Positions 8,749 to 57,073 of a stretch of DNA of 64,000 bases are shown piece after piece (the first letter of the stretch is position 1; every line of letters starts with the position of its first letter). This DNA is from Longimicrobiales bacterium (GTDB lineage Bacteria; Gemmatimonadota; Gemmatimonadetes; Longimicrobiales; Gaopeijiaceae), in the NCBI GenBank assembly GCA_965249725.1, contig CBDFMQ010000002.1, positions 2,896,750 through 2,960,749 on the forward strand. Direction: 5' to 3'. The translations under genes and the position numbers were made by a program. Under the pieces are notes generated by a model, which saw nothing but the letters and a program-made list of their open reading frames with translations, was not told the origin of the DNA and ran no database searches.

Positions 8749-9774
8749 CTACCGGGGTGCGACGATCATCGGTTGAACGCTGAACCGGTCGGGATCTTCC
8801 GCCGACACCGTGATCAACACCCAATGCATGAAGGGATGACCGAACGTCTCGACCCGGGTCAGGTTCGTGGTCATCTCGCCCGTCACGTTGTTCGAGAACG
8901 GCTTGTCGACCGTGTATGTGTGCGAATCACCGTGCATCACGAGTACTGGTCCGTCGAACGCGTCGGCCTCGTCGCGTAGGGTCTCCAGGAACTCGGAATA
9001 GGCCGGACGCGCCTCCCCCCGTTTGAAACTGTCCCATCCCGGGTTGGCATGTATCACCACCACGACGCTCTCTAGTCCCTCCGCTCGAGCCGTCTCGAAC
9101 GACTGCCGCATCCAGGTGATGTCGGCCGCGTTCCGCTCGACGAATTCGGCCCTGGGATCGGCCTCCGACCCGAGGTTGTTTCCACCGCCTACCACATGGA
9201 GCGTGAGGTAGAGGTCGTCGCGGAAGCGCCAACGGGTGTTCTCTCGGAATCTCTCGAATCCGGCGCTGTCGCTCTGCCGTTCCAGCGGGAGCTTACGGCC
9301 GCCGAGAGATTCGCCTCCCTGGGTAAAGACCTCGCGGAGCGCCTCAAGCTGCTCCATCGGATCCAGGCCCGCCCTGTCGCACTCGAGCCATTCGTTGTCA
9401 CCAAACGTGAGAAAGACAGGATGGCGAAGTGCTTCGAACTCGGCGTAACGAGCGGCATAGACCGAATCCGCACAGACGAGTGAGCTGTTGAGATCACCCA
9501 CGTGAACGACGAATTCCACGTCGGCCGCATCGATCTCCTGCAGCACCGCCGCGTACTGCGCGGCCACGAACTCGGGGGGGAGGGGCGCAGTGGGCGACGC
9601 GTAGTAGGGCATGTCGCCGACCAAGGCAAACTGGTAGATGCTGGGCGCTTCGACAGGGGGCCCCTCGGCCGGCACGCATGAAGCGCATGCGAGAACGATG
9701 ACGATCCCGAGGATAGGCGGCTGGACGCGGCGGGCGCGCTCCGCCGCCGCGAAGTCAACGTGCCAATCAAACAT
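8749..9774 (-). CDS. Metallophosphoesterase-family lipoprotein
   Basis: GDMPY, HVGD, GDNEW, HGDSH motifs. Confidence 0.75.
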   Translation of the reverse strand: MFDWHVDFAAAERARRVQPPILGIVIVLACASCVPAEGPPVEAPSIYQFALVGDMPYYASPTAPLPPEFVAAQYAAVLQEIDAADVEFVVHVGDLNSSLVCADSVYAARYAEFEALRHPVFLTFGDNEWLECDRAGLDPMEQLEALREVFTQGGESLGGRKLPLERQSDSAGFERFRENTRWRFRDDLYLTLHVVGGGNNLGSEADPRAEFVERNAADITWMRQSFETARAEGLESVVVVIHANPGWDSFKRGEARPAYSEFLETLRDEADAFDGPVLVMHGDSHTYTVDKPFSNNVTGEMTTNLTRVETFGHPFMHWVLITVSAEDPDRFSVQPMIVAPR

Positions 9775-11123: not shown

Positions 11124-12470
11124 TCATCGCGGCGGAGGCGGAGCTGGGGCGGATGGGTGCGTGATCCCCTCGAGTCGTTCTACGAAGTCATTAAGTAGAG
11201 CTTGGCTCTGCCGGCTGTCGAGGGCAAAGGCATCGTAGTGGAGGGTGAGGCGAAGCGCCCCGGCGTAGGTGTGGGCGGCGAGCGTGATGTTGGTCTCGGG
11301 CCGGATCGGGGGCAGGAAGTCGACGCACTCCAGAGTGGTTGAGCCGAGGCATGTTTTTCCATCTTCGTTGCTCAACGGACTCTGGTCGAAGAGGCGTCCC
11401 GCGTTGGACAGCACGGCCGTGGCCTGACATTGACGTGCCCGAACCATGGTTGATAGGCCACCGACGAACCGTCCCAGAGCCACGCTGTGGAGAAAAGCCA
11501 AGCCCAGTTTGTTTCGCCTGATCCTCCGCATCTCACGATGAATGCCCTGTAAGAAACCAGGGCTATCGTCTACATGACTGGCCCGACGATTGAGGAACGC
11601 TAGGCTCATATGATTGATCGCGGAGACGGAACCGGCGGGGCGAAAACCGACGGCCACGCAAACACGTATCCACGGCGACGTTGCCCTCTCCGGCGGTGGC
11701 TGGCGCGCGCCTATGGTTGAATACAGGGTGTGAATAAGGAGGTCGTTGAGGGAGACTCCTCGGGTGCCGGCGGCAGCCCGTAGGGAGGCGGTCTCCTGGG
11801 CGTTGAACTGCCAGTTGAGCGACCGCGGGTAGAGTGGGCCGGGTGACGCCTCGTCATCGGCAGGGCCGGACGTAGTCAGCGCGTGTGGCGTACGCATCAG
11901 GTAGTGGAGCACGCCATTCCAGGCTCGGACTTGTCTCAGGCTCGCCCACCAAAACTGTGCACGCGTCAAGCCGACGCGATGGCGTTGACGCAGGCGTGAG
12001 TTGTCGCGAACGGGTGCTGGTGGGGTGGGCAGTTCCGGCGAGGCAAGGGCGTAGTGGACGAGTAGGTCTTCTGCGAAGCGTAAGACACCGAGACCGTCAG
12101 AGGCCGCATGATGGGCTTGTAGGACAAGATCTGTGTGCTGCCCGTCACCGCAGGTATAGACGCGTACTCCCGGTTCGCTACACACGTCGAGCGGACGCAG
12201 GTTCGGTAGTTCGGGACCCGGCGTTGTCGCGAGTTTTTGTACATGGATCGGTGCGGGGCTCGGTATCCAGTACCAGTGGCGAGCTCGCTGTTGTGCTATA
12301 CAGGTGAGGAGAGGATGATCGCGGAGGGCCGTTTGCAGAGCAGCCTCCAGTATATCCGGATCGAGTGCACCGGAGAAACGCAATCGCACAAACCCGTTCA
12401 TGGGATAGACTGGCCCGTGATCGACCAGCATGTACTGCTCGAACGGTACGAGACGCAGCGGTCGGGTCAT
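11124..12470 (-). CDS. Stand-alone condensation-domain / CoA-dependent acyltransferase
   Basis: HHxxxDG motif (HHAASDG); GVSLNDLL; AVLSNAG. Confidence 0.7.
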   Translation of the reverse strand: MTRPLRLVPFEQYMLVDHGPVYPMNGFVRLRFSGALDPDILEAALQTALRDHPLLTCIAQQRARHWYWIPSPAPIHVQKLATTPGPELPNLRPLDVCSEPGVRVYTCGDGQHTDLVLQAHHAASDGLGVLRFAEDLLVHYALASPELPTPPAPVRDNSRLRQRHRVGLTRAQFWWASLRQVRAWNGVLHYLMRTPHALTTSGPADDEASPGPLYPRSLNWQFNAQETASLRAAAGTRGVSLNDLLIHTLYSTIGARQPPPERATSPWIRVCVAVGFRPAGSVSAINHMSLAFLNRRASHVDDSPGFLQGIHREMRRIRRNKLGLAFLHSVALGRFVGGLSTMVRARQCQATAVLSNAGRLFDQSPLSNEDGKTCLGSTTLECVDFLPPIRPETNITLAAHTYAGALRLTLHYDAFALDSRQSQALLNDFVERLEGITHPSAPAPPPPR

Positions 12471-12722: not shown

Positions 12723-13400
12723 ATGAAACGCCTGACACTGCTCGATACTGCCCAGGTTCCCGGGGACGGAGGAGAGATCGGCCTCTACCAGCTCGGCGAC
12801 GACTACATCATCAAGGTCGCGGGCGGCCAGGACCTGATGAGCACTCGTACACACGGGTCCGCCGACGCGCTGGCCGAGATCGCGTGCACCGAGATTGTGG
12901 ATCGAGCCAACGCACGTGCCCTGATCGGCGGTCTGGGGATGGGGTTCACCTTGGCGACGGCGCTGCGCCACCTCGGCCCCGATGCCTACGTGGTCGTCGC
13001 CGAACTGGTGCCGGCGGTGGTCGAGTGGAATCGCGGCCCGCCGGGAGAGCACTCCGGGCACCCTCTCCGGGATGAACGCGTCACCGTCCGCGAGGCAGAC
13101 GTCGGTGTCGTGCTGAGGGAGGCGCCCGCGGCTTGGGATGCCATCATGTTGGATGTGGATAATGGCCCGGAGGGTTTGACCAAGAACGACAATGATTGGC
13201 TCTACTCCGGGGCCGGGCTTCATGCCACCTACCAGGCCCTTCGACCCGAGGGCGTGCTCACCGTGTGGTCGGCCCACTCGGACAAGGGCTTCACGAAGCG
13301 GCTACGGAAGGTCGGATTCGAAGCGGAGGAGGTCGTCGTGCGCGCACACGGCGGAAAGGGCTCGCGGCATGTCATCTGGAAGGCGCGAAGAGGAAGGTAG
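12723..13400 (+). CDS. Spermidine synthase-like SAM-dependent methyltransferase
   Basis: [21 protein letters not shown]. Confidence 0.8.
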
Positions 13401-13467
13401 CTGGAGGCGCCCACCTGCCGGCCCAACCGTCACTCTCCCCGCCCACCGCATTCGAGTACCTTGGGGC

Positions 13468-15054
13468 ATGGAGCCTCACGCCGCCGCAGAATCCACCGCC
13501 ACCCCCCTCGGCGTCCTCCGCGACGTGTTCGGCTACGAGAACTTCCGACCCGGTCAGCTCGAGGTCATCGAGGCCGTCATGGCAGGCCGCGACTGCATTG
13601 CGCTTATGCCAACCGGAGCGGGTAAATCCCTGACCTTCCAGGTACCGGCTCGGATGATGGACGGCACAGTGCTCGTGGTGTCTCCGCTGATCTCCCTCAT
13701 GAAGGACCAGGTGGATGCACTCGTCGACCTCGGCTTTCGCGCTGCGGCGATCAACTCGTCGTTAGAACCCGGCGAACGTGAGCGGAGACTCCAGGCACTC
13801 CGGGCCGGAGAGTACGAGTTGGTCTACCTGGCTCCCGAGCGACTCGACGGCCGCCTGAGTCGGGAAGCCGGGAACTGGCCTCTCTCGCTGCTCGTCGTGG
13901 ACGAAGCTCACTGCATCAGCCAGTGGGGCCATGACTTCAGGCCGTCGTACCGGCGGCTGCAGCGACTGCGGACGGCGCTCCCGAACACGCCCGTCCTGGC
14001 ACTCACGGCCACCGCCACCAACGACGTGGCTCGCGACATCATCCGCCAACTCGAGATGACCAAGCCCGCTGGCTTCAAGGGCTCGTTCTTCCGATCCAAC
14101 CTGAACATCTACTGCAGAAAGAAGGGCACCGGACCCACGCGACAGGAGATCGCGGGGCTGATCAAGGCGCGGTCCGGCCAGAGTGGCATCCTGTACTGTG
14201 CCTCTCGAAAGGCGGTCGATCAGATGACCGACTTCCTGTGTGATCTGGGCGTGCGGGCCCTACCCTACCACGCCGGAATGGAGGCGGAGGAGCGATCGAC
14301 CAACCAAGAAGCCTTCGCCAAGGACGACGCCGACGTGATCGTCGCGACCATCGCCTTCGGCATGGGCATCGACAAGTCCAACGTGCGCTTCGTCATCCAT
14401 CGGGACATGCCGAAGGATGTAGAGTCTTGGTATCAGGAGATGGGCCGCGCGGGGCGGGACGGTCTGGAGAGCGACTGCTTTCTCTTCTACTCATGGGCCG
14501 ACGTGAAGCAGCAGGAGCGCTTCCTGAGCGACATCGATGATCCCGATCTCTATTGGGCGAAGGCCGAAGCGACCAAGGCCCTCTTCCGGCTTGTGGAGAA
14601 CGGAGGATGTCGCCACCAGAAGATCCTCACACATCTCAGCGAGGAGATCAGTCCGTGCGACGTGTCTTGTGACTGGTGCACGGGAATCAAGGCCGAGGAT
14701 CTGGCGGCGGAAGGCATAATGGCCGTCGAGGCAGGGGGCCAGACTATGTCCCGAGCCGGCCCCCGGTCCGGCTCCACGCGTTCCCGCTCACGACAGACCG
14801 CCGATCGGGTCGCAGAACCCGGTCCGCTATCCGATGAGGCAGAGGCCCTGTTTCAATCGCTGAGGGACCTCCGCAAGTCGATCGCGGACCGTCAGGGAGT
14901 GCCGGCCTACATCGTGTTCAGCGACAAGACCCTGCGCGCCATGGCCGAAGCGCGCCCGTCCACTCCGGGGGAGCTCCTGGCCGTCTCGGGCGTGGGACCG
15001 CTCAAGCTCGAGCGGTACGGCGAAGCCTTCCTGGACGCGGTGAGCGAATCCTAG
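13468..15054 (+). CDS. recQ: RecQ-family ATP-dependent DNA helicase with HRDC domain
   Basis: [61 protein letters not shown]. Confidence 0.92.
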
Positions 15055-35778: not shown

Positions 35779-37812
35779 CTACGGCAGCGCCAACGCCGCC
35801 AGCATGTTCGGAATCTGCACCACGACGTGCTGCTTGCCGTTGTGCATGAACGTGCTCAGGCCGTAACGGGGACTGCCCGGCAACTCGACCTGCGCGAGCC
35901 GCTCCCCCGTCGCCTTGTCCACGGCGTACAGGTAAGGCGTTTGGTCACTGCCGTGACCCGTGTACATGAGCAGCGTCTTGGTCACGAGCTGCGCGGCCTG
36001 ACGCCCCGTGCCGGTGTTGGGGATGTCGATTCCCGCTAGCGCCGGGTTGTTCTTCACGAGATTCGGCGTGTCGCCAACCGGGATCCACCAGAGATGTTCG
36101 CCCGTGTTCATGTCGATCGCCGTGATCTTGCTGTACGGCGGCTTGAAGATCGGCATGCCTCGGATGCGACCGAATCTGGCGGAACCGCCTACCGCGTACT
36201 TGTTGATCGTGGTCCCCGTGGGAACGCCAGTGTCGCCGTCCACCTCCTCGCCCGGAACCATGATCCGAGACGAACAGCCCTTCTGAGACGTCACGTAGAG
36301 GATGCCCGTCTCCGGGTCCGCCGCGGGAGTGCCGTCGATGTTCGTTCCGCCGACGTCTCCGGGGCACCAAACTGCGGCGGTCTTGCCGAGATCGTTGTCA
36401 CGGTGGAGCGGTGGAGTGAAGAGCGGTCCGTAGTGATAGTCCTCGAGGAGCGCGAGTGCCTCGGCCCTGAGCTCAGGTGTGAAGTCGATGAGGTCGTCGT
36501 CAGTGAGCCCCTGCAGGTCGTACGCGGCCGGCTTGGTCGGATGCGGCTGCGTGGGAGACAATGCCTCACCTGGCATGAGAGCCGGCGGTGCCGGCCTCTC
36601 CTCGATGGGCCAAATGGGCTCACCCGTCTCGCGGTTGAACGCGTAGGCATAGGCCTGCTTGGTTACCTGCACGACGGCCGGGATATCCACGCCGTCCACG
36701 GTCACATCCATGAGGACGGGTACCTGAGGCGTGTCGTAGTTCCAGATGTCGTGGTGGATCAGCTGGTAGTGCCATACCCGCTCACCGGTCTTCACGTCCA
36801 AGGCGATCAGGCTGGTGCTGAACAGGTTGTCACCCGGACGGAAACCACCCCAGAAGTCGGCGGTCGCCCCGTTTGTGGGGATGTAGACGATGCCGCGCTC
36901 ATAGTCGGCCGAAAGCGGAGCCCACGACGAGATGTCGCCGGTCCACTCCCAAGCGTCGTTCTCCCAGGTCTCGTGTCCGACCTCACCCGGGCCGGGGAGT
37001 ACGTCGAACTTCCAGAGGTGCTCACCGGTCCTGGCGTCGTAGGCCAAGATGTCGCCGGGCACCATCTCTTGGCGGGTCTGGTTGTACCCCTGCTCGGCCG
37101 AGTTGCCCACGATGATCACGTCGTTGACAACGATGGCCGGCGAGGAGCTCGTGATGTAGCCCTTCTCGAGCGGAATACCCTCGGCTACGTCGTACTCGTG
37201 CCCCAGATCGGCGAGGAGATCGACGGTGCCGGCCTCAGGGAAGCCGTCGATCGGAATGGCGCCACCGAAGCCTTCGATCGGCTCGCCCGTGTCGGCGTCC
37301 AAGGCGTGCAGGAAGAACGAGGGAGTCACGACGTAGATCACGTCCCGCCCATCGATCTTCGCGTAGGCGACGCCCTTACCGTGGTTCTTCCGCATGGAGT
37401 ACTCCCACCGGAAGGTGGGGGGCTCCACGAAGGTCCAGATCGTCTCGCCCGTGTCGGCGTCGATCGCGACCACGTGCCGGCGCTCACCGGCCACGCTAAT
37501 CAGCTTGCCATTCACGTAGATGGGGGTAGCCCGTGCGTTCACGTTGGGTAGCTCGGAGCCGTCCCACGTCCACGCCATCTGGAGATCGGCGAAGTTCTCC
37601 GCGTTGATCTGATCGAGGGGCGAGTACCGTTGACCTTGAGCGTTGCCCGAGATGTAGACCCAGTCCCCTTCGTGGGGAGATCCCTGTGGCTCCTGCATGT
37701 CGGTCCCACACCCCGCTGCCACCAGGGCACCGAGCGAGAGAACCAGCCAGGATCCAGCCGGCTGCGACTGCGAGGAACGAGCCTCTCTACTCATGTGAAC
37801 TTCTCCACTCAT
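35779..37812 (-). CDS. PQQ-dependent (glucose dehydrogenase-like) lipoprotein
   Basis: RYSPLDQIN, WHYQLIHHDIWNYD, KPPYSKITAIDMNTGE. Confidence 0.88.
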   Translation of the reverse strand: MSGEVHMSREARSSQSQPAGSWLVLSLGALVAAGCGTDMQEPQGSPHEGDWVYISGNAQGQRYSPLDQINAENFADLQMAWTWDGSELPNVNARATPIYVNGKLISVAGERRHVVAIDADTGETIWTFVEPPTFRWEYSMRKNHGKGVAYAKIDGRDVIYVVTPSFFLHALDADTGEPIEGFGGAIPIDGFPEAGTVDLLADLGHEYDVAEGIPLEKGYITSSSPAIVVNDVIIVGNSAEQGYNQTRQEMVPGDILAYDARTGEHLWKFDVLPGPGEVGHETWENDAWEWTGDISSWAPLSADYERGIVYIPTNGATADFWGGFRPGDNLFSTSLIALDVKTGERVWHYQLIHHDIWNYDTPQVPVLMDVTVDGVDIPAVVQVTKQAYAYAFNRETGEPIWPIEERPAPPALMPGEALSPTQPHPTKPAAYDLQGLTDDDLIDFTPELRAEALALLEDYHYGPLFTPPLHRDNDLGKTAAVWCPGDVGGTNIDGTPAADPETGILYVTSQKGCSSRIMVPGEEVDGDTGVPTGTTINKYAVGGSARFGRIRGMPIFKPPYSKITAIDMNTGEHLWWIPVGDTPNLVKNNPALAGIDIPNTGTGRQAAQLVTKTLLMYTGHGSDQTPYLYAVDKATGERLAQVELPGSPRYGLSTFMHNGKQHVVVQIPNMLAALALP

Positions 37813-42656: not shown

Positions 42657-43907
42657 TCACCCCTGGATCCTCCTTTCGATGTACTGAACGGCGGCCCGGT
42701 AGGTGTCGGGAATGAGGTGGGCGTAGGTGTCCTCGACGACCTTGGTCGTGTCACCTAGCAGGGTGGCGATCACATTGAGCGGAACGCCGTCCTGGGCCAG
42801 CCATGAGGCATAGGTGTGACGGCCACTGTGTAAGGTGAGCCCGTCGCCTTCCCTTCCGTACTTGATCCCGGCCAGCTCGAAGGCGTCCTGGGTCCAGCGA
42901 GCCGAGGTGCCGGCCGTCACAGGCTGGTCCCCGCGATGAGGGCTCACAATCAAGTACCGCTCCCCGGCATACCCTCTGCGGATGTGATCTTCGATGATCG
43001 TGACGAGGCTCTCGGTGATCGGTACGTCCCTTTCACCACGCCGCGTCTTCGGCCTCCAGGAGTAAACATCCTTTCGGGACTGTACCCGGATCAGTGGTTC
43101 GCTGCCATCTAGAAGGACATCAACGCCAGTCCTTAGATGTAGTATCTCGCCTTGGCGCAGGCCCGCGAGGAACGCAATCGCGATCATGGCGCGGTGTGGG
43201 GTCCCAATCATGCTACGATCCAGGTCCGCCCACTCCGGCGGAGTCAGGAACACGGCCCGCGTGGGCCGGATCTCGGGCATGTCGATGCCCTTCCAGGGGT
43301 TGCTACGGATCGCGGGCTGTACGTTGCGGCGAGCGAGCAGATCGGCCTCCTCGTCCATGACCATGCTCCAGAGTGCCCCGCACACGACCTGGCAAGCCCC
43401 TTGGCTGGCAGGTGCCCACGGACGCCCCGCTGTGCTTGCTTTCGGGCCGTGCAGGTACGCGCGCGCCTCGTCGACCGTCAGCTCTTCCATAGGGAAGTCC
43501 GGGCCGACGTCTCTCTCAAGGTGCCCGAGAACGGTCCGATACTTCTTGATGGTGGCCCTGCCGCGTGTGGCCTCTTTGAGCATCAGGAACCTCTCGACGG
43601 CCGGCCCGAGCCTAGGCGAATCAGAGCCCATGCGCCGCAGCTTGGTGGCGTCGCCGTTACGTAGCGCGGCCTGAGCGTCGGTGATGTGCATGTCGCCACG
43701 GCGGATCGCCTCAAGCACGTTCCAGTCGCCACGATCCATGAGCTGAGTCAAAACGGTATGGCGCTCGGTGGCCACATCCCGATCGCCGGTCCTGAGCGAG
43801 ATCGCCAGGCGGCCGCCGTTGAACCGCGAGTGCCTACGGTCGAAGTAGGCGCGGCCAGCTCGCCATACGAGGCCCTTGGGGGCACGTGAGCGCTTTCTAG
43901 GACTCAC
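42657..43907 (-). CDS. int: Tyrosine recombinase / phage integrase
   Basis: AGLRQGE (R), PKT (K), HSGRHTYASW (HxxR), LLGD, TYAH (Y). Confidence 0.93.
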   Translation of the reverse strand: MSPRKRSRAPKGLVWRAGRAYFDRRHSRFNGGRLAISLRTGDRDVATERHTVLTQLMDRGDWNVLEAIRRGDMHITDAQAALRNGDATKLRRMGSDSPRLGPAVERFLMLKEATRGRATIKKYRTVLGHLERDVGPDFPMEELTVDEARAYLHGPKASTAGRPWAPASQGACQVVCGALWSMVMDEEADLLARRNVQPAIRSNPWKGIDMPEIRPTRAVFLTPPEWADLDRSMIGTPHRAMIAIAFLAGLRQGEILHLRTGVDVLLDGSEPLIRVQSRKDVYSWRPKTRRGERDVPITESLVTIIEDHIRRGYAGERYLIVSPHRGDQPVTAGTSARWTQDAFELAGIKYGREGDGLTLHSGRHTYASWLAQDGVPLNVIATLLGDTTKVVEDTYAHLIPDTYRAAVQYIERRIQG

Positions 43908-44142
43908 TGCCCACCAGCTCCTCACACTCTTGGACGAAGCGATCGACAGCCTTCGGCGAGATTCGGTAGCGTGCCTTGCCAGAGCGCGACACGTTCAGCA
44001 CCCCCGGAGACTTCAGGTGGCCTTCGTGGATCATCTTGAGGACGAAGCCGGTGGACATTCCGCCGATGCGCTCTGCCGCCTGTTTCGGGGAGAGCCAGTT
44101 GTACTCGGCCTCGTACTGCTCTGGGGTTTTCGTTCTGCTCAC
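43897..44142 (-). CDS. xis: Excisionase-like HTH protein
   Basis: WLSPKQAAERIG..MIHEGHL..YRIS; overlaps the integrase start. Confidence 0.75.
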   Translation of the reverse strand: MSRTKTPEQYEAEYNWLSPKQAAERIGGMSTGFVLKMIHEGHLKSPGVLNVSRSGKARYRISPKAVDRFVQECEELVGSES

Positions 44143-47410: not shown

Positions 47411-48148
47411 CTAGTGGCCCTCCACCTGGGCGGTCGGCCGGGTGTGGTGATCCCCGAGCGGCAGTTCGCCGTCGTCGGTAGGCTCGGGCTCGGCTTGTTC
47501 CAACTCTTCGGCCTCGATCACCTCCGGTGGATCGCCACCGTCGAGCTGCTCGGCGAGCGCGGCCTTCCGGTCGGCGATCGAGGGGCCGATGTCCTCGGCT
47601 TCCTCGGCTGTGTGAAGCCCTACCGCGAGTTCCGGGCAGTGCGTCCGGGACCAGAATGCGGCGGCACGGTAACGCAGCATCTGCTCCGGCATCGTCTTCC
47701 ACTTCGAGCCGTTCTTCGTCGCCCAGCCCTCCGCCTTCGCCATCCCGACCGTGACCAGTGTTCCGATCAGCTCCTCGCCATCCCCTAGGTCCACCGCCAC
47801 GGCTCGGCAGCCCCATGAGTCCTCGCCCTCCGTGCCCTCGAAGCGGAAGCGCAGGGGAGAGAAGCGCCCCGAACGGTTCACGGCAGCGATCAGGAACTGA
47901 GCGCTCCAGCTCGGACGGCCGTTGATGATGTGAAGGTTCTGCATCACGGCCAGGACCGGGACCTGAGTGCGCTGGGCCATCTCCATCGCCACAAGCACGT
48001 TCGAGGCATTGTCCCGGTAGTCGCTCGGGATGATCGAACTCTCCGATAGCGCCTTGGCCTTGCGAGCTACCAGATCCCAGCCCTCTTCCGTGTCGGTCGA
48101 TAGGATTCCGGGCTCGGTGCGAGTCAGCGCAGTTCCGTTGCTAGACAT
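47411..48148 (-). CDS. RecT-like ssDNA annealing protein
   Basis: VMQNLHIINGRPSWSAQF, WKTMPEQMLRYRAAAFW; adjacent to exonuclease. Confidence 0.75.
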   Translation of the reverse strand: MSSNGTALTRTEPGILSTDTEEGWDLVARKAKALSESSIIPSDYRDNASNVLVAMEMAQRTQVPVLAVMQNLHIINGRPSWSAQFLIAAVNRSGRFSPLRFRFEGTEGEDSWGCRAVAVDLGDGEELIGTLVTVGMAKAEGWATKNGSKWKTMPEQMLRYRAAAFWSRTHCPELAVGLHTAEEAEDIGPSIADRKAALAEQLDGGDPPEVIEAEELEQAEPEPTDDGELPLGDHHTRPTAQVEGH

Positions 48149-49037
48149 CGGTGTCCTCCTCGTTGCGGGTGGCCCATCCAGGTAGGCGCAGCGTCAGGAA
48201 CTCGTCGCCGTAGCCCGGCCAGTAGTCCTCGGCTTCGCAGTACTTGAAGTGATCGAGAAGCCGCGTGACCTCGTCGCTCGTGATGCGCAGATCATCCTCG
48301 TCGATGAGGTAGCAGGCCACCGAGTAGGGTGGAGCCGATTCGACGGTGACCAGCGCGGACGCCGTGCACTCGGTGCCGAGAGCCGCCAGTCCACGCCGAT
48401 AGAATGCCTCCCTGCGGTGGTAGCCACGCCGCGCGGCATCCGAGCCGAATACCCACGGTGAAGCGTCGCGCGTGCTCTTGAGGTTCACCGACAGGTTGGC
48501 ACGCTCGACCAACCGATCGGGCCGGATCTTGCAAAGCACCCCGGTCTCGGGGTCCTCAAAGACGCCCGTGACCTCCAATTCGCCACGGCCCTCGAACAGG
48601 CTGCCGGATCGTGGGTGCCTTAGCACCGCATCTCGCATGCCGAGCACCGATGCGTAGTCGGCCTCCGCGAGCACCGCGATCGTCGGATCATCCGGCGCTT
48701 CGCCCTTGCCTGGGTCGTGGGACTTGCAGAAGCTCTGGCCGTCCCGGTAGACCGAGCCCTGGTATGCGCAGCGCTCTCCGTCCTTCCTCTTCCCCTCGCA
48801 CCGGCCCAGCGTCACGTAACGGCCCTCGAACGTCTCGGGCTCCAGGATCGCCAGGTGTAGCGCTGTGCCCCGCTCTAGCGCCGGGGTCGCGCTGCGTGGC
48901 GCCTGGAGCGTGTAGCGGTAATGCTCGGGGCACCGCCTGAATTCTTCCAGCAACGACGCGCTCATCGCCGGGAGCGCCAAGTAGTCGGACAGCGCTAGGT
49001 CGCGCGTCCATCCTGGGTTAAGGGTTGCCGTTGTCAT
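48141..49037 (-). CDS. RecE/exonuclease VIII-like PD-(D/E)XK nuclease (DUF3799-like)
   Basis: MSASLL, GTALHLAILEP, CKIRPD, NLKST, YHRREAFY, WPGY. Confidence 0.85.
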   Translation of the reverse strand: MTTATLNPGWTRDLALSDYLALPAMSASLLEEFRRCPEHYRYTLQAPRSATPALERGTALHLAILEPETFEGRYVTLGRCEGKRKDGERCAYQGSVYRDGQSFCKSHDPGKGEAPDDPTIAVLAEADYASVLGMRDAVLRHPRSGSLFEGRGELEVTGVFEDPETGVLCKIRPDRLVERANLSVNLKSTRDASPWVFGSDAARRGYHRREAFYRRGLAALGTECTASALVTVESAPPYSVACYLIDEDDLRITSDEVTRLLDHFKYCEAEDYWPGYGDEFLTLRLPGWATRNEEDTDV

Positions 49038-50536: not shown

Positions 50537-50764
50537 TCACGCGCCCCCCGCCAGCACACGCTCGCGCGCCTCGTTCGCCGCCTTCTCGGCCGCTTCCAGC
50601 CTGTCGAGCGTCGCGTTGAGCCGAGCCTCGAAACCCTCGGGGGGCTTCCGGAGCCCGCGCAGATAGCGGCTCAAGAGGGAGCGGTCGATCCCCATCTCCA
50701 GGGCTACGCGCTCCTGGGGAATGCCCAGGCGGGCAAGGCGGATCTTGATATGGATGCTGTCCAT
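50537..50764 (-). CDS. Cro-like XRE HTH regulator
   Basis: IPQERVALEMGIDRSLLSRYLRG; divergent from cI. Confidence 0.85.
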   Translation of the reverse strand: MDSIHIKIRLARLGIPQERVALEMGIDRSLLSRYLRGLRKPPEGFEARLNATLDRLEAAEKAANEARERVLAGGA

Positions 50765-50827
50765 GTGAGATAGATACATGGATGCCATCCATGTGTCAAC
50801 CCACGGGGTGACCGATATATTGATGAC
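50748..50827. promoter_or_regulatory. Divergent promoters and operators of the lysis/lysogeny switch
   Basis: Perfect palindrome ACATGGATG-C-CATCCATGT (50776-50794); second imperfect site at 50748-50766; minus strand TTGACA-N17-TATCTA; plus strand GTGTCA-N17-TATATT. Confidence 0.8.
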
Positions 50828-51631
50828 ATGCTTGGCGTGCGTTTGGCGGAGTCTCGGAAACGAGCGGGGTGGTCCCAGCATCAGTTGGCTATTGAGCTGG
50901 GGGGGCGCTACGACCAGTCCGTCATCTCAGCGGTTGAGAACAAGCGGTCCTCGTTGCGACTCACAGGCGCGGTGAAGGCTGCTCAGGTCCTCGACGTCTC
51001 GCTCGACTATCTCCTCGGCCTCACCGACGACCCGGCCCCGGTGGACGACCGAGTCCTCCAGGAGGCGCGTAAGCGCGAGGAGCTGGAAGCCGAGCTACGG
51101 CAGACCCAGGCGGAGCGTGACCACCTGCGGACGCAGGTCGCCGCTGCGGGCAAGTCCTTGCCGCACAGCCCGCTGCAGATAGTACCAGGTGGCCTTGCGG
51201 ACGACGAGGCGCGAGAGCATCCAAGGCTCCGGATGGTCCCCGAGCTGGATGTCGAAGCGGCAGCGGGTACGGGAGCCTACGTCGAACAAGAGCCGATCGT
51301 CGGCCATCTTGCGTTTCGCGAAGAGTGGCTGGCTCGCACGTGCGTCAACCCCGAGGAGTGCAGAACCATCCGGGTACAGGGTAGCTCGATGGAGCCGACC
51401 CTAGGGGCTGGGTCGCGCATCTTGGTAGACCCGCAGCGCACGCGCCGTCTCCGTGACCGCATCTTCGTCGTGGGGACCGCAGAGGGTTTGCTCGTCAAGC
51501 GGCTGACCCGAGACGGCGGCTACTGGCTGCTCGTCAGCGACAATGAGGACCAGGAGGCGTATCCGCCGATCCCGTGGCCGGAGGGAGCGGTAGTGAGAGG
51601 CCAGGTCATGTGGACCGGGAGGATGCTGTGA
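50828..51631 (+). CDS. cI: CI-like repressor (XRE HTH + S24 peptidase)
   Basis: WSQHQLA..SAVEN HTH; AAAG cleavage site; GSSMEPT (Ser); LVKRL (Lys). Confidence 0.93.
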   Translation: MLGVRLAESRKRAGWSQHQLAIELGGRYDQSVISAVENKRSSLRLTGAVKAAQVLDVSLDYLLGLTDDPAPVDDRVLQEARKREELEAELRQTQAERDHLRTQVAAAGKSLPHSPLQIVPGGLADDEAREHPRLRMVPELDVEAAAGTGAYVEQEPIVGHLAFREEWLARTCVNPEECRTIRVQGSSMEPTLGAGSRILVDPQRTRRLRDRIFVVGTAEGLLVKRLTRDGGYWLLVSDNEDQEAYPPIPWPEGAVVRGQVMWTGRML

Positions 51632-52506
51632 GTCGCGCGAGTCTGGTGGACACACACGGAGTAAAGGGGGGGAGCATCGAAGCCAAGTGTCCACGCACCG
51701 CCCTCATCTACGATTTCGACGGCACGCTTTGCAAGGGCAACCTGCAAGAACACAGCTTCATTCCCGATGTGCAAATGACGAGGGACCAGTTCTGGGAGGA
51801 GGTGAAGAGCCGTACGAAAAAGGACGATGCAGACGAGATCCTCGTGTATATGCACTTCATGATCGAAAAGGTGAAGGAGAAAAAAATCGGTGTCTCCCGT
51901 GCAGAAATTTGCCAACACGGTGAGGACGCCCCTCTCTTTCCCGGGTTGGAGAACTGGTTTAATCGAATCAACGTGTTTGCCTGCAAAGAGGGCCTTGGTC
52001 TGGAGCACTATATCATTTCATCTGGCCTGCATGAGATGATCGAAGGCTGCTCGATCTGCGGCCAGTTCTCTCATATATTCGCATCGAAATTCACCTACGA
52101 CCAAGATGGCCATGCCAGCTGGCCGGCCGTCGCGATCAACTACACAACCAAGACGCAATACCTATTCCGGATCAACAAAGGGATTAGGAACCACTGGGAT
52201 AATGACGCTGTCAATAAGTACACACCGGAGAACCAACGTCCAATTCCTTTTGAACGGATGATCTTCATTGGCGATGGCCAAACGGATATTCCCACGATGA
52301 AGATGCTGACCCACAAAGGTGGCCACTCTATTGCCGTCTACGACCCGAACAGTGACCACGACACGATCCACGAACTCCTTTCGGCCAGCCGGGTGGATTT
52401 CGTCGCACCTGCTGATTACAAGAAAGGAGAGCAACTGGACATCATCGTGAAGGGGCTCTTGGGACGGATCAAGAACGACCTAGACGAGAAGAGGAGACAT
52501 GAGTGA
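51628..52506 (+). CDS. HAD-superfamily hydrolase (cargo)
   Basis: YDFDGTL, ISSG, KTQYLFRINKG, IGDGQTDIP; GTG overlaps the cI stop; lower GC. Confidence 0.88.
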   Translation: MSRASLVDTHGVKGGSIEAKCPRTALIYDFDGTLCKGNLQEHSFIPDVQMTRDQFWEEVKSRTKKDDADEILVYMHFMIEKVKEKKIGVSRAEICQHGEDAPLFPGLENWFNRINVFACKEGLGLEHYIISSGLHEMIEGCSICGQFSHIFASKFTYDQDGHASWPAVAINYTTKTQYLFRINKGIRNHWDNDAVNKYTPENQRPIPFERMIFIGDGQTDIPTMKMLTHKGGHSIAVYDPNSDHDTIHELLSASRVDFVAPADYKKGEQLDIIVKGLLGRIKNDLDEKRRHE

Positions 52507-52678
52507 CAACAGTTAGGTCCCGGAAGTCTCTTCTTCTATTGCGGCAGGGGGGGTGCTCAAGCCACGCGGCGAGGTCATGTGGACCGGGAAGATGTTGTGA
52601 CCATCCAGGTGAGGCTGAGGATCGTCTTCTGTGGCATCCCCGAGATCGTAAGAACACTCCTCTTCTCCTGGAGATTCC

Positions 52679-53467
52679 ATGCTTCGACTTAGCAGCTTCT
52701 TAGCAGTTCCACTTGTGCTTGTGGCGTGCTCGCCAACCGTCGATGGATCTTCAGACGAGTCGTTCGAGGCATCCCTTGAAAGGGTTCGGCAAGCGCTGCC
52801 CGAGGCTCAACTCGCCGCTTTCGATACGGCGGTGATAACGGTTGGTCTGGGTGACCTTTCCCTGCTAGAAGCAGGATTCGCTGAGGCCGCGAGCCCCGGG
52901 CAACTCAGCCGAACGGTCCGTGAGCGCATGGATGGAAAGACCGCAGCCGATGTGTTCGCCATGTCCGACTCCATTGTGGCGGAGAGGAGAGAGAGAGCCC
53001 GCGAAGCTGCGCTGGAGGAGATCGAAGAACTCGAGGTCAAGAAGGCTGCTTCGGAAGCTGCCACTGTTGAGCTGGCCAAGTTCGAGGTGGTCCGTGCTCG
53101 GTTCTACCAGGAGGAGGGTGTTTTCGGAAGCGAACCCAAGATCGGGCTCACACTTCGGAACGGTACCGCGTCAGCCGTATCTCGAGCCTACTTCCGCGGG
53201 CAGGTCGTGAGCGCAGGTCGCGCGGTACCGTGGATCGACGAAGAGTTTAATTTCTCTCTGCCCGGCGGGATCGAGCCAGGAGAACCCGGCGACTGGACGC
53301 TATCCCCGAATACCTTCAGCGAGTGGGGGAATGAAACACCTGATGACGCCATCTTTATCGCAACAGTTATCAGGATCGATGGACCGGATGGAGAGGCGCT
53401 CTTCGACATGGACTTCGACAACCAGGATCAAGAGCGACTAGATGTGCTGATTCGTGAGTGGCGGTGA
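52679..53467 (+). CDS. Lipoprotein, DUF6694-like (cargo)
   Basis: Lipobox LVAC; PTVDGSSDESFEASLERVRQAL. Confidence 0.65.
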   Translation: MLRLSSFLAVPLVLVACSPTVDGSSDESFEASLERVRQALPEAQLAAFDTAVITVGLGDLSLLEAGFAEAASPGQLSRTVRERMDGKTAADVFAMSDSIVAERRERAREAALEEIEELEVKKAASEAATVELAKFEVVRARFYQEEGVFGSEPKIGLTLRNGTASAVSRAYFRGQVVSAGRAVPWIDEEFNFSLPGGIEPGEPGDWTLSPNTFSEWGNETPDDAIFIATVIRIDGPDGEALFDMDFDNQDQERLDVLIREWR

Positions 53468-53565
53468 GATCAACTAGCTCCCGAACCATGGGCCGCATGG
53501 TCTGGTGGGCGCACACGGATTGAGGGTGAGATGAGGGATCAGGTGATGTGGACGGGGGGGAGGCT

Positions 53566-54528
53566 GTGATCGAGCAGAACAGGAGCATGAATGATGGAGG
53601 GGTAGAGCTTTCTGGTGAAGAGGAATCTTGCGGGATCTGCGGTAACCCTGAGGACATGGGGGATCACGCGGAGTGTCGAGCGGTTCTCTGTGAGATGAAA
53701 GACATCAAACCTCCAAGGCAAGACGAACAGGACTGCCACTACATTGCCGACCCCAATAATGCCCATATCAACACCTCGGATTTTGAGAGTTGGCTGAAGG
53801 CCACGGTCTCTCCCAGTGTGGAGAATACTGATTGGCGACCCATCATCTATACAGAGATCGTGCGTCTCATCTCTTACCGTCGTCCAAGTGAACCGGCTGA
53901 TAACACCCTGATATGTAGGTACTTCACGCCCGCCAACTTCGTCCGATTCATTGGGCAGAAGGCCCTTCATTTTGCCACAGCCACAGCGTTCGAAGATCGG
54001 TTGGATTGTTTATTGCCGGACGACTATGATCTCTGTGTCCAGGCATTCCTACAGGACCAAGGCACTGATGACGCTGGCCTCTGGAAAGAGTACGTAGATA
54101 AGATGCGGGCGCGATGGGTCGTCTCCTGCTGGACCGAGTTGGACGAGCCTTACCATGACCATCTGCTTTCGCACAAATATACTGGGGGGGATTTTGGGAT
54201 CGGAATCACGATCCGATACCATAAGCTGAGAGATCACCTTGAGAGGTCCTACCAGCAGGGACTTTATCCTGACGCGAATGATTTTACTTGCGGCAAGGTT
54301 GAATATATTAGGGGTGGAAACGACCAGGGATTACGGCATCCACCCTTCAACAAGAGACGAATATTCAAGAGCGAAAGGGAGATCAGGTTCGTTTTTCGTA
54401 CGAAGACCGAAGTGCCCGGAATAGGCGCTGGTATTGCTGAATTGAAACAGTGCTTCGGACTTCGATTTTCGCCGGATGTACCGGCTGACTACGTGTGTTC
54501 TGTACGTAAGGTGTGGAAGAAATTTTAG
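53566..54528 (+). CDS. DUF2971-like protein (cargo; start uncertain)
   Basis: LHFATATAFED, VSCWT, KRRIFKSEREIRF; low GC; GTG overlaps the stop of a type A repeat. Confidence 0.6.
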   Translation: MIEQNRSMNDGGVELSGEEESCGICGNPEDMGDHAECRAVLCEMKDIKPPRQDEQDCHYIADPNNAHINTSDFESWLKATVSPSVENTDWRPIIYTEIVRLISYRRPSEPADNTLICRYFTPANFVRFIGQKALHFATATAFEDRLDCLLPDDYDLCVQAFLQDQGTDDAGLWKEYVDKMRARWVVSCWTELDEPYHDHLLSHKYTGGDFGIGITIRYHKLRDHLERSYQQGLYPDANDFTCGKVEYIRGGNDQGLRHPPFNKRRIFKSEREIRFVFRTKTEVPGIGAGIAELKQCFGLRFSPDVPADYVCSVRKVWKKF

Positions 54529-54932
54529 GGACCACGCTTGAACTACTGAAGCAGTGCGATAGTGCCGATCAGGAGCACACGCAGGGCGTGGAGGGCGCCT
54601 CTTCCCCATGAACCACCTCTACTACGGGGATAAGATCGATGTGATGACGTGCCGCGCCAAAGGACGCAGAGCAGCTGGGGCTCGAGCCTCGAGGAGTGGA
54701 CGACGAGACCCACCCGCCTATCCCATGGCCCGAGGACGCCATTCTGCGCGGCGAGGTGATGTGGTCTGGACAGTCGATGCGACGATCAAGGTGAGGCGAG
54801 GATCGCCCGGGGTGCTGGGCCGCGTCGTCTGGTGGGGGCACACGGACACGGGGTGAGGGCTCGCCTCCCGCGTTACCCACGAGTCTTTTTCTGGTTCTTC
54901 GTAACAAGTCACTACGCAGTGGAGGTGATCCA

Positions 54933-55319
54933 ATGACGAAGCTCGCCTTTCTAACCACCGCCCTCCTTTTTCTCCCCGGGTGCTATCACGCGACGATCGA
55001 GACTGGTCGTATGCCGTCCCCCCAGCAGGTTGATGTTCCGTGGGCCCACTCCTTCCTCGCCGGACTCGTGCCACCAGGAGTCGTGGATGTCGAGGAGGAG
55101 TGCAGCAGCGGTGTGGCCCGTGTCGAGACCCAGCGTTCGTTCCTGAACCAGCTCGCCGCCGCTGTAACGTTTGGCCTCTATGCGCCGATGCACATCACGG
55201 TCACCTGTGCGTCCGATGAGGAAGAAGAGCAGCAATCTGCTCTCCCCATGGTTCGGACCGAGAACGAGGTGGCTGCGGCTCTCCGGTCAGGGGAACCCTT
55301 TTTCCTGCCGGTCGAGTGA
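54933..55319 (+). CDS. Bor/Iss-family lipoprotein (cargo)
   Basis: Lipobox LPGC; HSFLAGL, C..GVARVETQRSFLN, TFGLYAP...VTC; GGAGGT RBS. Confidence 0.8.
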   Translation: MTKLAFLTTALLFLPGCYHATIETGRMPSPQQVDVPWAHSFLAGLVPPGVVDVEEECSSGVARVETQRSFLNQLAAAVTFGLYAPMHITVTCASDEEEEQQSALPMVRTENEVAAALRSGEPFFLPVE

Positions 55320-55771
55320 TTTATTCGGGGCGGCCGTGAGTGTCCAGGCTAAAGCGTGTGCGGAGGAGTACGCAGGGTTCAACCGGTGGATGGAAGCCCG
55401 TCACGCGGCGAAGAGCGAGAAGGCGACGGCGACGGGGGGAAGGGGCTAGGATCCTAGGCCGCGTCGTCTGGTGGGCGCACACGGTTCGGCCCCGGGGAGT
55501 CCTTGCACATTCTTCCCCCTCGATCTAGGTGGAGAAACCGGCAACGAGGACGAGCTGCGGGGCCAGGTCATGTGGACTGGGAAGATGCTGTGAGCCCAGC
55601 GGTGAACGAATGACAGGTCTGGGGGAGCACGAGACCGCGGCGGCATCCGGCGTATCGGTACATGCGGGACGGAGATGGGGACGGGGTGGTGCGTGAGAGG
55701 GCGTTCGAAGGGGGGAGAGCACCACCCGATTGCCCAGTGACTTGCCAGTCCGTCGCGGAGAGGTGGCTTTG

Positions 55772-56332
55772 ATGGATGTCGTCCTTGGCTTCGTGCTCGG
55801 GCAGGTTACCAGCTTCGCGAAGCTGGGGTGGAAGTGGTGGATGCGCCCTCGACTCACGATCGAAGCACCCGGTCATGTGCTTAGGGAGGAACCCTTGGCG
55901 AGACACCCTAGCGGTCAGAGCAATCCTTCCGTGGTGTACGGATTCCACATTCGCAACACTGGACGTGAGGTTGCGACGGGGATTCGCGTCCAGCTCACGA
56001 AGATCGAAACCCGGTACAAGGCGGACGAGGGTGAGCCTACGTGCATTTCACGATGCACCTACGATCTCGGCTTAGAAGGCGGAGGCAGTGAAGCGACGCT
56101 CGTCCCGGCGGCAGCAACCGCAGTTAGATTGGGGTCCTGGGAGAGAGAGCACGACGTAATAATCCCGGAGATCTCGGGGGGATTGCCGCAGTACTACCTG
56201 GAGGTCTGCGAGCAGGCAACCGAATGCCGGTTTACGGTCGTCGTCTTTGACGATAGGTCACACCACAAAGAACAGACTCTGACATTCCGTCGGTGCCTTC
56301 CTCCGGAGGAAGGCTGGTCGTGCGAGCCATGA
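55772..56332 (+). CDS. Hypothetical protein with N-terminal hydrophobic segment (cargo)
   Basis: GGAGAGG RBS; WMRPRLTIE..HIRNTGREVA. Confidence 0.6.
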   Translation: MDVVLGFVLGQVTSFAKLGWKWWMRPRLTIEAPGHVLREEPLARHPSGQSNPSVVYGFHIRNTGREVATGIRVQLTKIETRYKADEGEPTCISRCTYDLGLEGGGSEATLVPAAATAVRLGSWEREHDVIIPEISGGLPQYYLEVCEQATECRFTVVVFDDRSHHKEQTLTFRRCLPPEEGWSCEP

Positions 56333-56396
56333 CAGCGGCCCTCTGCTTCGACGACCCCATGAACCGCCTCTACTACGGGGATAAGCTCGACACAAC

Positions 56397-56714
56397 GTGA
56401 CCGACGCATACCTCACGGCGGCCAAGGGTATTCTGTCTGAGGCTGAACGGAGCGAGGTCGTGAAGATAGTTGCCGGGAACCCCCAGTCGGGCGTTTCGCT
56501 CGGAGGGGGTATCCGGAAAATGCGGATGGCCCGATCAGGGCGCGGGAAGAGCGGTGGTGCGCGTGTGGTCTTCCTGTTTTCCGGTGACGACATTCCCGTG
56601 TTCTTGCTCACCGTCTTTGCCAAGAATGAGAAAACAAGTCTGAGCGCTAGGGAACGAGCTGAGCTGATCGCTGCGGCAAAGCAGATAGTAATGGATTACC
56701 GGAGGCTAAAATGA
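56397..56714 (+). CDS. RelE/HigB-family toxin
   Basis: GGIRKMRMARSGRGKSGGARVVF..LLTVFAKNEK. Confidence 0.9.
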   Translation: MTDAYLTAAKGILSEAERSEVVKIVAGNPQSGVSLGGGIRKMRMARSGRGKSGGARVVFLFSGDDIPVFLLTVFAKNEKTSLSARERAELIAAAKQIVMDYRRLK

Positions 56715-57073
56715 GCGGTGCATTCGAGAAGGTTATGGCTGGGCTCGCGGATACCCGCGCGTACTTGGACGGAGAGCGCGACGGCTTTGAGGTGTATGAA
56801 GTTGAGGTGCCCGAGCCTGATACTGTGGCGATCCGAAGAAAGACGGGACTGACGCAACCCGAGTTTTCGAGAACCATCGGTGTGCCTTTAGGCACTCTCA
56901 AGAATTGGGAGCAGGGTCGTCGGCGCCCGGGTGGTGCGGCACGTGTGCTTCTTGCGCTCATCGACAAGAGGCCGTCGATAGTTCAGGAAGAACTCGGACT
57001 GGTAGCCCGCCCCGTTAACGACTCGCGATCACATACCCAACCGCGAACACGCCAGCGTATTTCACCGCACTGA
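56711..57073 (+). CDS. HigA-like HTH antitoxin
   Basis: IRRKTGLTQPEFS..TLKNWEQGRRRPGGAARVLL; ATGA overlap with the toxin. Confidence 0.9.
   Translation: MSGAFEKVMAGLADTRAYLDGERDGFEVYEVEVPEPDTVAIRRKTGLTQPEFSRTIGVPLGTLKNWEQGRRRPGGAARVLLALIDKRPSIVQEELGLVARPVNDSRSHTQPRTRQRISPH

Follow-up and report, generated by a model that had tools for sequence, protein, structure and literature searches.

Stumps of repressor genes from two immunity lineages separate accessory genes behind cI in a Longimicrobiales prophage

The subject of this report is a 64,000-nucleotide stretch of DNA from a Longimicrobiales bacterium (GenBank assembly GCA_965249725.1, contig CBDFMQ010000002.1, positions 2,896,750 to 2,960,749, forward strand), referred to here in its entirety as the window. 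It contains a prophage with an integrase gene, RecT- and RecE-like genes, a cro-like gene next to the repressor gene cI, and late/lysis genes. Behind cI lies an array of six units of accessory genes, punctuated by up to eight stumps of cI genes from two lineages. The stumps are non-coding, co-oriented fragments homologous to the 3' ends of repressors of other immunity types, as is characteristic of recombination scars. We consider it probable, at roughly 70%, that they are scars at the left edge of a mosaic slot adjacent to cI and that they are reused as short homology for the gain and shuffling of cassettes. The feature is real and widespread in this group of phages. The slot itself is already known, the multi-lineage array of stumps appears to be new, and no new class of system is involved.

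Repressor-gene stumps in the window

The tail of the resident cI lineage is termed type A and that of a different cI lineage type B. An initial annotation, prepared from the sequence alone, had reported four extra copies of the cI tail, covering its last 11-30 codons, between unrelated genes. All four are where it placed them, on the same strand as cI; they are evident on direct reading, the type-A tails form one five-copy direct-repeat family (D1), and the copies are recovered again by tblastn. The repeats are significant against shuffled sequence, a 28-mer of the A tail with up to three mismatches matching three sites in the window and none in any of 100 shuffles. The 19-mer core of type B has four matches, at 51641, 53500, 54827 and 55466, against 0.03 expected; this second repeat stands directly behind the cI stop codon and adjoins three of the four type-A tail copies.

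The gene order given in the initial annotation agrees with the open reading frames (ORFs) and Pfam matches: cI is followed by genes for a HAD-fold protein, a DUF6694 lipoprotein, a protein of unknown function, a Bor-like lipoprotein, a second protein of unknown function, and a RelE/HigB-like toxin with a helix-turn-helix (HTH) antitoxin, all in the same orientation. A 'DUF2971-like' label proposed for the third cargo gene was not reproduced; there is no Pfam match at E ≤ 0.01 and only phrog_34615 and a weak match to PDC-S31 were obtained. The features of the array are as follows.

50828..51631, + strand: resident cI repressor (HTH_3 and Peptidase_S24), type-A tail at 51596-51631
51632..51664, + strand: type-B stump, abutting the cI stop codon
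51694..52506, + strand: cargo 1, HAD-fold protein, PADLOC candidate defence family PDC-S34 (E 2e-112); start uncertain, frame open from 51574
52548..52625, + strand: type-A stump, core 52565-52600, with about 25 nt of conserved post-stop sequence
52679..53467, + strand: cargo 2, DUF6694 lipoprotein (phrog_7468)
53480..53530, + strand: type-B stump, 47/51 identical to the intact type-B cI end of locus L026
53531..53569, + strand: type-A stump, core 53534-53569, adjoining the preceding B stump
53587..54528, + strand: cargo 3, protein of unknown function (phrog_34615), frame open from 53548
54604..54646, + strand: 5' stump of a gene for an N6/N4 DNA methyltransferase; L026 has the whole gene, preceded by a B tail
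54699..54805, + strand: long type-A stump, core 54699-54794, 27 residues aligned, stop codon lost, with a conserved segment past the stop position
54812..54858, + strand: type-B stump
54933..55319, + strand: cargo 4, Bor-like outer-membrane lipoprotein (Pfam Lambda_Bor, E 2.1e-18; phrog_260)
55445..55489, + strand: type-B stump, stop codon lost
55555..55593, + strand: type-A stump, core 55558-55593
55627..55700, + strand: 3' stump of a gene with a GmrSD_C/Excalibur domain; the sister prophage of contig C1 has this gene intact
55730..56332, + strand: cargo 5, 200-residue protein with no family match
56355..56391, + strand: second 5' stump of the methyltransferase gene
56397..57073, + strand: cargo 6, RelE/HigB-like toxin (56397-56714) and HTH antitoxin (56711-57073)

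The first three type-A tails (51596, 52565 and 53534) are spaced by exactly 969 nt twice. The intervening units, which carry the HAD and lipoprotein genes, are unrelated and the double spacing is probably a coincidence.

Origin and decay of the stumps

For several stumps, identity to the intact cI ends found in other genomes is 92-100%. Intact genes with type-A and type-B tails are present in the window's own genome and in others, which upholds the earlier proposal that the tails came from functional repressors of related phages and not from local duplication. The window's genome has three full-length cI genes and one cI fragment, the two further full-length genes being 49% and 47% identical to the resident cI. 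Both of these end in a type-B tail and lie in two other prophages of this genome, on contigs C1 and C2, and the nucleotide match runs a few bases beyond the stop codon. The C1 prophage and the window prophage have nearly the same flanks (1.5 kb of late genes match at 94%), but the cI of the C1 prophage is of type B. Behind it, one A stump and two B stumps act as separators in an array with genes for a Sel1-repeat protein, a GmrSD_C/Excalibur protein and a 351-residue protein, an insertion sequence (IS) and HicAB. Four or more tail types occur among the cI loci.

Differences between the copies had been described initially as mostly synonymous. This holds among intact tails, which differ from each other by 64 synonymous and five non-synonymous changes (A 50/5, B 14/0), but not for the stumps. 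In reference-based alignments with the nearest intact tail the stumps show approximately 37 synonymous and 46 non-synonymous changes (A 20/23, B 17/23), and the four type-A stumps of the window alone show 4 and 12. The stop codon has been lost in seven of 13 type-B stumps, and there is an internal stop in one type-A stump. The loss of stop codons together with non-synonymous change identifies the stumps as relics of once-functional genes in which decay has begun.

A 16-nt core is nearly invariant across 17 type-B tails, intact and stump, from two phyla, and this extends to third codon positions, with four differences in 13 stumps. Codon bias and the youth of the stumps may account for this invariance; constraint at the nucleotide level may do so instead. 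The type-B core also has a Chi-like look, an idea that was dropped as two tryptophan codons force that appearance.

Could the tails be retained as working elements, serving in coupled translation initiation, as signals for RNA processing or termination, or as folded attC-like sites? A start codon that overlaps the tail stop is in frame with a long ORF in three to four of 13 type-A tails, including the cI-to-HAD junction and the stump before cargo 3, and translational coupling could be envisaged there, but this is about the frequency that chance of frame would give. Six tail regions fold no better than shuffled sequences (z from -0.46 to +0.98), none of the 25 longest inverted-repeat pairs lies at a tail, and there are no Rfam matches. 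Promoter matches (3 versus 2.4) and terminator matches (5 versus 4.6) are at background level in a scan for sigma-70-type promoters and simple terminators. By the same consensus approach there is just one sigma-70-like site ahead of cI and no excess of such sites in the array. Given in addition that the four tail types differ in sequence and that many stumps have no stop codon, a retained function of this kind is very unlikely.

Occurrence in other genomes

A search of genome contigs gave 13 loci with near-full-length relatives of the resident cI, in metagenome-assembled genomes of Bryobacterales, Vicinamibacterales, Terriglobia and Longimicrobiales. With the other cI genes of five of these genomes, two loci of G141 and the three of the window's own genome, this makes 34 cI loci in eight genomes of two phyla. 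Fragments were counted as stumps when anchored at the cI C-terminus (E ≤ 0.01), downstream of the gene and co-oriented with it. At least one such fragment is present at 18 of the 34 loci, giving 30 stumps of 11-63 residues and one complete second cI (L018); with laxer per-locus thresholds there are about 50 stumps. One weak antisense match was found and none upstream, the upstream flanks of 17 loci being covered in one search and those of the other 17 in another. In the window, L018, L020, L190, L192 and L197 a stump of one type stands directly behind the stop codon of an intact cI of another type.

No close relative was found among metagenome contigs, where four loci have just a 38-40-residue N-terminal HTH match, or among viral contigs, where all of 79 loci match at the N-terminus only or are at most 29% identical. 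Within the class to which the window belongs, this cI is found at E ≤ 1e-20 in two of 301 genomes, the window's own included.

The cargo of the arrays comprises PDC-S34, three restriction-modification sets, AbiU2, ParE/HTH, HicAB, a GmrSD_C nuclease, a Sel1-repeat protein, Bor-like and other lipoproteins, and IS elements. Such genes, of defence or accessory type, are typical of slots expressed in the lysogen.

Three loci merit separate mention. In L018 (10001-12252) a second complete cI, of a different tail type, follows the first in tandem at a distance of 0.8 kb; two stumps lie in the interval, and ParE/HTH genes come after. Such a tandem may represent the starting state for stump formation. 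At L015 (G000, contig C2) a lone type-A stump (9640-9675, minus strand) is oriented opposite to the C2 cI, at a distance of about 22 kb. Five near-identical cI loci with one tail type and no stumps, L199-L203, are on small contigs of G302 and may be a multicopy or unresolved element.

The tails are repeats common to many phages in the sequenced sample and they break short-read contigs, so that an assembly in which the prophages of several strains had been joined chimerically at common cI ends has to be considered. We regard this as extremely unlikely. The same architecture recurs at 18 loci in eight genomes, several on chromosome-sized contigs, and the window lies inside a 2.96-Mb contig of a three-contig genome. 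In addition, short-read contigs independently span the tail-cargo-tail of unit 1 (51602-52575) without differences and cover cargo 3.

Shared units and rearrangement

Units of tail plus cargo are found in other arrays, in other orders and also directly behind an intact cI, much as the initial annotation had envisaged. The A stump, cargo 1 and next stump of L020 correspond to the intact cI end and first cargo of L188, in another genome, with 96% identity over 546 nt. The intact cI end of L017 and the 69 nt that follow recur 2 kb into the L188 array (97.7%). A unit composed of an A tail and the gene for a 68-residue lipoprotein is present in five arrays at offsets of +481, +1472, +1526, +2516 and +2665 from the cI stop codon, behind different upstream cargo. 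In all three cases inspected, the start of the block that two arrays share coincides with the left edge of a tail. L020 also carries a 75/76-nt direct repeat of stacked B and A tails on both sides of its cargo 1. Repeats that flank accessory genes, combined with units at differing positions, are the pattern seen in repeat-mediated reshuffling of the PeSL type discussed below.

Two observations concern other forms of change in these slots. In L020 the lipoprotein cassette is present twice (11409-11540 and 13391-13674), one copy truncated after about 130 nt and one complete without a tail, which points to internal insertion or unequal exchange. IS/transposase genes lie inside three arrays (L013, contig C1, 8673-9962; L017, 14051-17421; L023, 12531-13721), hence transposition also remodels the slots.

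The initial annotation had gone further and proposed an ordered record of acquisitions. Circular units of tail plus cargo would enter the 3' end of the resident cI by single crossover, regenerate the repressor and push older units downstream. Such a crossover would leave perfect tail repeats like those on both sides of the cI-proximal cassette in L020, a stump-plus-cargo unit of L020 stands directly behind the intact cI of L188, and phages of the T4 type form mini-circles between repeated regulatory cassettes (PMC2839356). Against insertion always into the resident cI end are seven junctions with cargo-free stacked tails behind the cI stop, the six named above and one in phage lambda, which are better explained by replacement of the immunity gene or by tail-to-tail exchange. 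A strictly chronological order finds no support: one cassette is present at five offsets, and the GC content of the cargo does not change monotonically along the array, a result that is not decisive by itself. There are also stumps of genes other than cI. Overall, we consider such an ordered record unlikely, and a dedicated integron-like mechanism finds no support. Neither an integrase nor attC features accompany the array.

Contigs from one sample (four runs) that hold the region were also inspected. Depth peaks on the tails, at about 850 compared with 3-20 on cargo, and beyond the cI stop codon the sequence continues in seven different ways; in one contig a B tail runs into the start of the methyltransferase gene. 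Joints that 'go back' along the array are explained by the arrangements of other phages, and no circle junction can be distinguished. As the tail-to-tail joints may all belong to other phages, these contigs reveal shared junctions and not excision. The contexts of related phages diverge at the scar, as seen in these continuations, in the block boundaries at tails and in relatives of lambda.

Prophage setting

Other features of the prophage relevant to the argument are listed here.

42657..43925, - strand: prophage tyrosine integrase (Pfam Phage_integrase, E 9.8e-15), at the left prophage end, about 7 kb from the array
47411..48148, - strand: RecT-like single-strand annealing protein (phrog_561, E 2.5e-74; weak Pfam RecT)
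48141..49037, - strand: RecE-like (exonuclease VIII) PD-(D/E)XK exonuclease (phrog_412, E 8.5e-65; Pfam DUF3799, E 4.5e-25)
50537..50881, - strand: divergent cro-like HTH gene (Pfam HTH_3)
50793..50821, + strand: sigma-70-like promoter match in the position of a maintenance promoter ahead of cI, a consensus match only and the sole such match there
from about 57.2 kb onwards, - strand: late/lysis genes

A model for growth of the array

In this reading a temperate phage has its slot for accessory and defence genes behind cI, and the lysogen would transcribe these genes along with the repressor, presumably from the cI promoter. The repeats between genes are dead repressor 3' ends of at least two immunity lineages. 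A cargo gene standing directly behind the cI of a donor would bring the final 30-190 nt of that cI with it when it is joined into the slot of a different phage. A stump would also form when cI is replaced and the join falls near the end of the old gene. The first scars would require an illegitimate join, or else a deletion in a tandem cI such as that of L018. From then on every stump would share short homology with the stumps and intact cI ends that related phages carry. Through unequal homologous exchange at such sites, units of tail plus cargo could be added, removed, duplicated or reordered while the resident repressor stays intact, probably by means of the RecT/RecE-like pair of the phage or host RecA. 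Phage Rad52-like recombinases, RecT-type included, recombine short, diverged sequences of temperate phages and prophages (De Paepe et al. 2014, PMC3945230). If cassettes are gained, lost and reordered through the tails, this would explain why tail repeats are perfect, why shared blocks have their boundaries at tails, and how immunity swaps leave tails stacked.

A simpler view is that illegitimate recombination and deletional trimming, that is classical moron accretion, suffice, and that the stumps are passive debris with no part in later exchange. The stumps of other genes are in keeping with this, as are the fragment lengths, which are graded from 11 to 63 residues, the loss of stop codons and non-synonymous decay, and the complete second cI of L018 as a possible starting state. 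Such debris does not readily explain why 30 of 31 fragments are at most 63 residues long out of about 250 possible, or why several stumps match the intact cI ends of other genomes at 92-100%. The 75/76-nt repeat around the L020 cassette and the shared blocks that start at the left edge of a tail also run counter to it, and we judge it improbable as an explanation.

Several points nonetheless weigh against scars that are reused as homology. Sixteen of the 34 cI loci have no stump. The non-cI stumps in the window, the methyltransferase 5' end twice and the Excalibur-gene 3' end, imply joins or deletions without tail homology, so illegitimate events do occur. Stump lengths are not fixed, which means that there is no defined site. 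The stump boundaries and the synonymous and non-synonymous counts are approximate owing to a small set of nearest intact references. Finally, no ongoing exchange was seen in the contigs of the one sample, where the tail-to-tail joints may all be attributable to other resident or co-occurring phages, one of them being simply the C1 prophage.

A more ambitious proposal, possible in our view though well short of probable, is that the last 30-100 nt of the repressor gene constitute a portable, integrase-free docking sequence. Continual exchange, or selection for exchangeability, would keep the stumps young, and with the RecT/RecE-like pair the arrangement would be a homology-based counterpart of the integron.

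Comparison with known systems

Phage lambda itself offers a parallel. Directly behind its cI stop codon is a short in-frame relic (NC_001416, about 37193-37226, minus strand; locus L187) that resembles, at the peptide level, the end of another repressor type and the type-B tail of the window. Its likeness to the type-B tail of these soil-bacterial phages suggests a very widespread repressor tail type. The similarity of HK544, VT1-Sakai and mEpX1 to lambda ends at the end of the relic. In lambda there is a single relic, compared with up to eight stumps of two lineages in the six-unit array described here. All of 234 lambdoid records with a lambda-type 30-residue cI tail have one site each, in a search to which stumps shorter than about 20 residues are invisible. 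No paper describing the lambda relic was found in the literature searched. In lambdoid phages the mosaic hotspot runs from cI to N; PMC8585504, citing Degnan et al. 2007, counts the DNA that follows cI as a hotspot for such diversity.

The nearest mechanistic analogue is provided by the PeSL cassettes of T4-type phages. In a hyperplastic region of these phages, homologous recombination at short repeats between non-essential genes leads to their insertion, loss or replacement (Arbiol et al. 2010, PMC2839356). Both systems have short repeats between accessory genes and allow exchange without a dedicated integrase. The PeSLs are working promoter and terminator units for which mini-circles have been demonstrated, whereas the separators here are dead gene ends without promoter, terminator or fold, and no circles were seen in the sample contigs. 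Further work on PeSL cassettes has reportedly been carried out by Comeau and colleagues (2014).

The likeness to integrons is one of analogy only. In both a co-oriented row of single-gene units follows one upstream gene, with a repeated element between units; in the array the units would be mostly promoterless and cI would carry the promoter. As the initial annotation had asserted, the array contains no integrase or attC-like site (Pfam, inverted-repeat and folding checks). No IntI-type integrase adjoins it, the only Phage_integrase gene being that at the prophage end (42657-43925), and in place of attI/attC imperfect inverted repeats and folded sites there are repeats homologous to the end of a coding gene.

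Tandem accretion at the 3' ends of tRNA or protein genes also creates a row of gene-end stumps between blocks of cargo. There each arrival brings its own integrase and att site and leaves a copy of the target 3' end, whereas none of the six units in the window has an integrase. Morons carry their own promoter and terminator; matches in the array are at the background level of the consensus scan, which covers sigma-70-type promoters and simple terminators.

Relaxed recombination between temperate phages offers a possible enzymology, as the phage here has RecT- and RecE-like genes. The process described in the accessible text of PMC3945230 is mosaic replacement between two flanking homologies, and that text has no gene-end stumps or array growth. 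Prophage hotspots for defence genes are similar in that variable anti-phage cargo occupies a fixed slot of a temperate phage, as in the P2 and P4 hotspots (PMC9122126). BstA occupies a slot immediately after the repressor gene, whose promoter it presumably uses as well (PMC8585504). Recombination is proposed in the available parts of those papers without sequence footprints, whereas here footprints are preserved.

It had been stated at the outset that no named system of this kind was known. The literature searched yielded no description of multi-lineage arrays of repressor stumps, with subscription papers, Degnan 2007 among them, outside its coverage; to that extent the statement stands, but the analogues above are close.

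Implications

Footprints are usually missing when the entry of accessory and defence genes into fixed slots of temperate phages is deduced. In these arrays they survive. Each junction carries, as a label, the immunity type of the phage that supplied the neighbouring gene, and the labelled units can be traced between genomes of two phyla. The arrays provide sequence evidence for modular exchange mediated by linkers. Whether genes at the cI-adjacent hotspot are acquired by homologous or illegitimate recombination becomes a question that can be answered by breakpoint statistics or a recombination assay. The stumps are in addition a practical flag for new defence genes behind repressors. If the repressor end does serve as a docking sequence, heteroimmune phages would trade defence cassettes and immunity genes with an intact repressor always restored.

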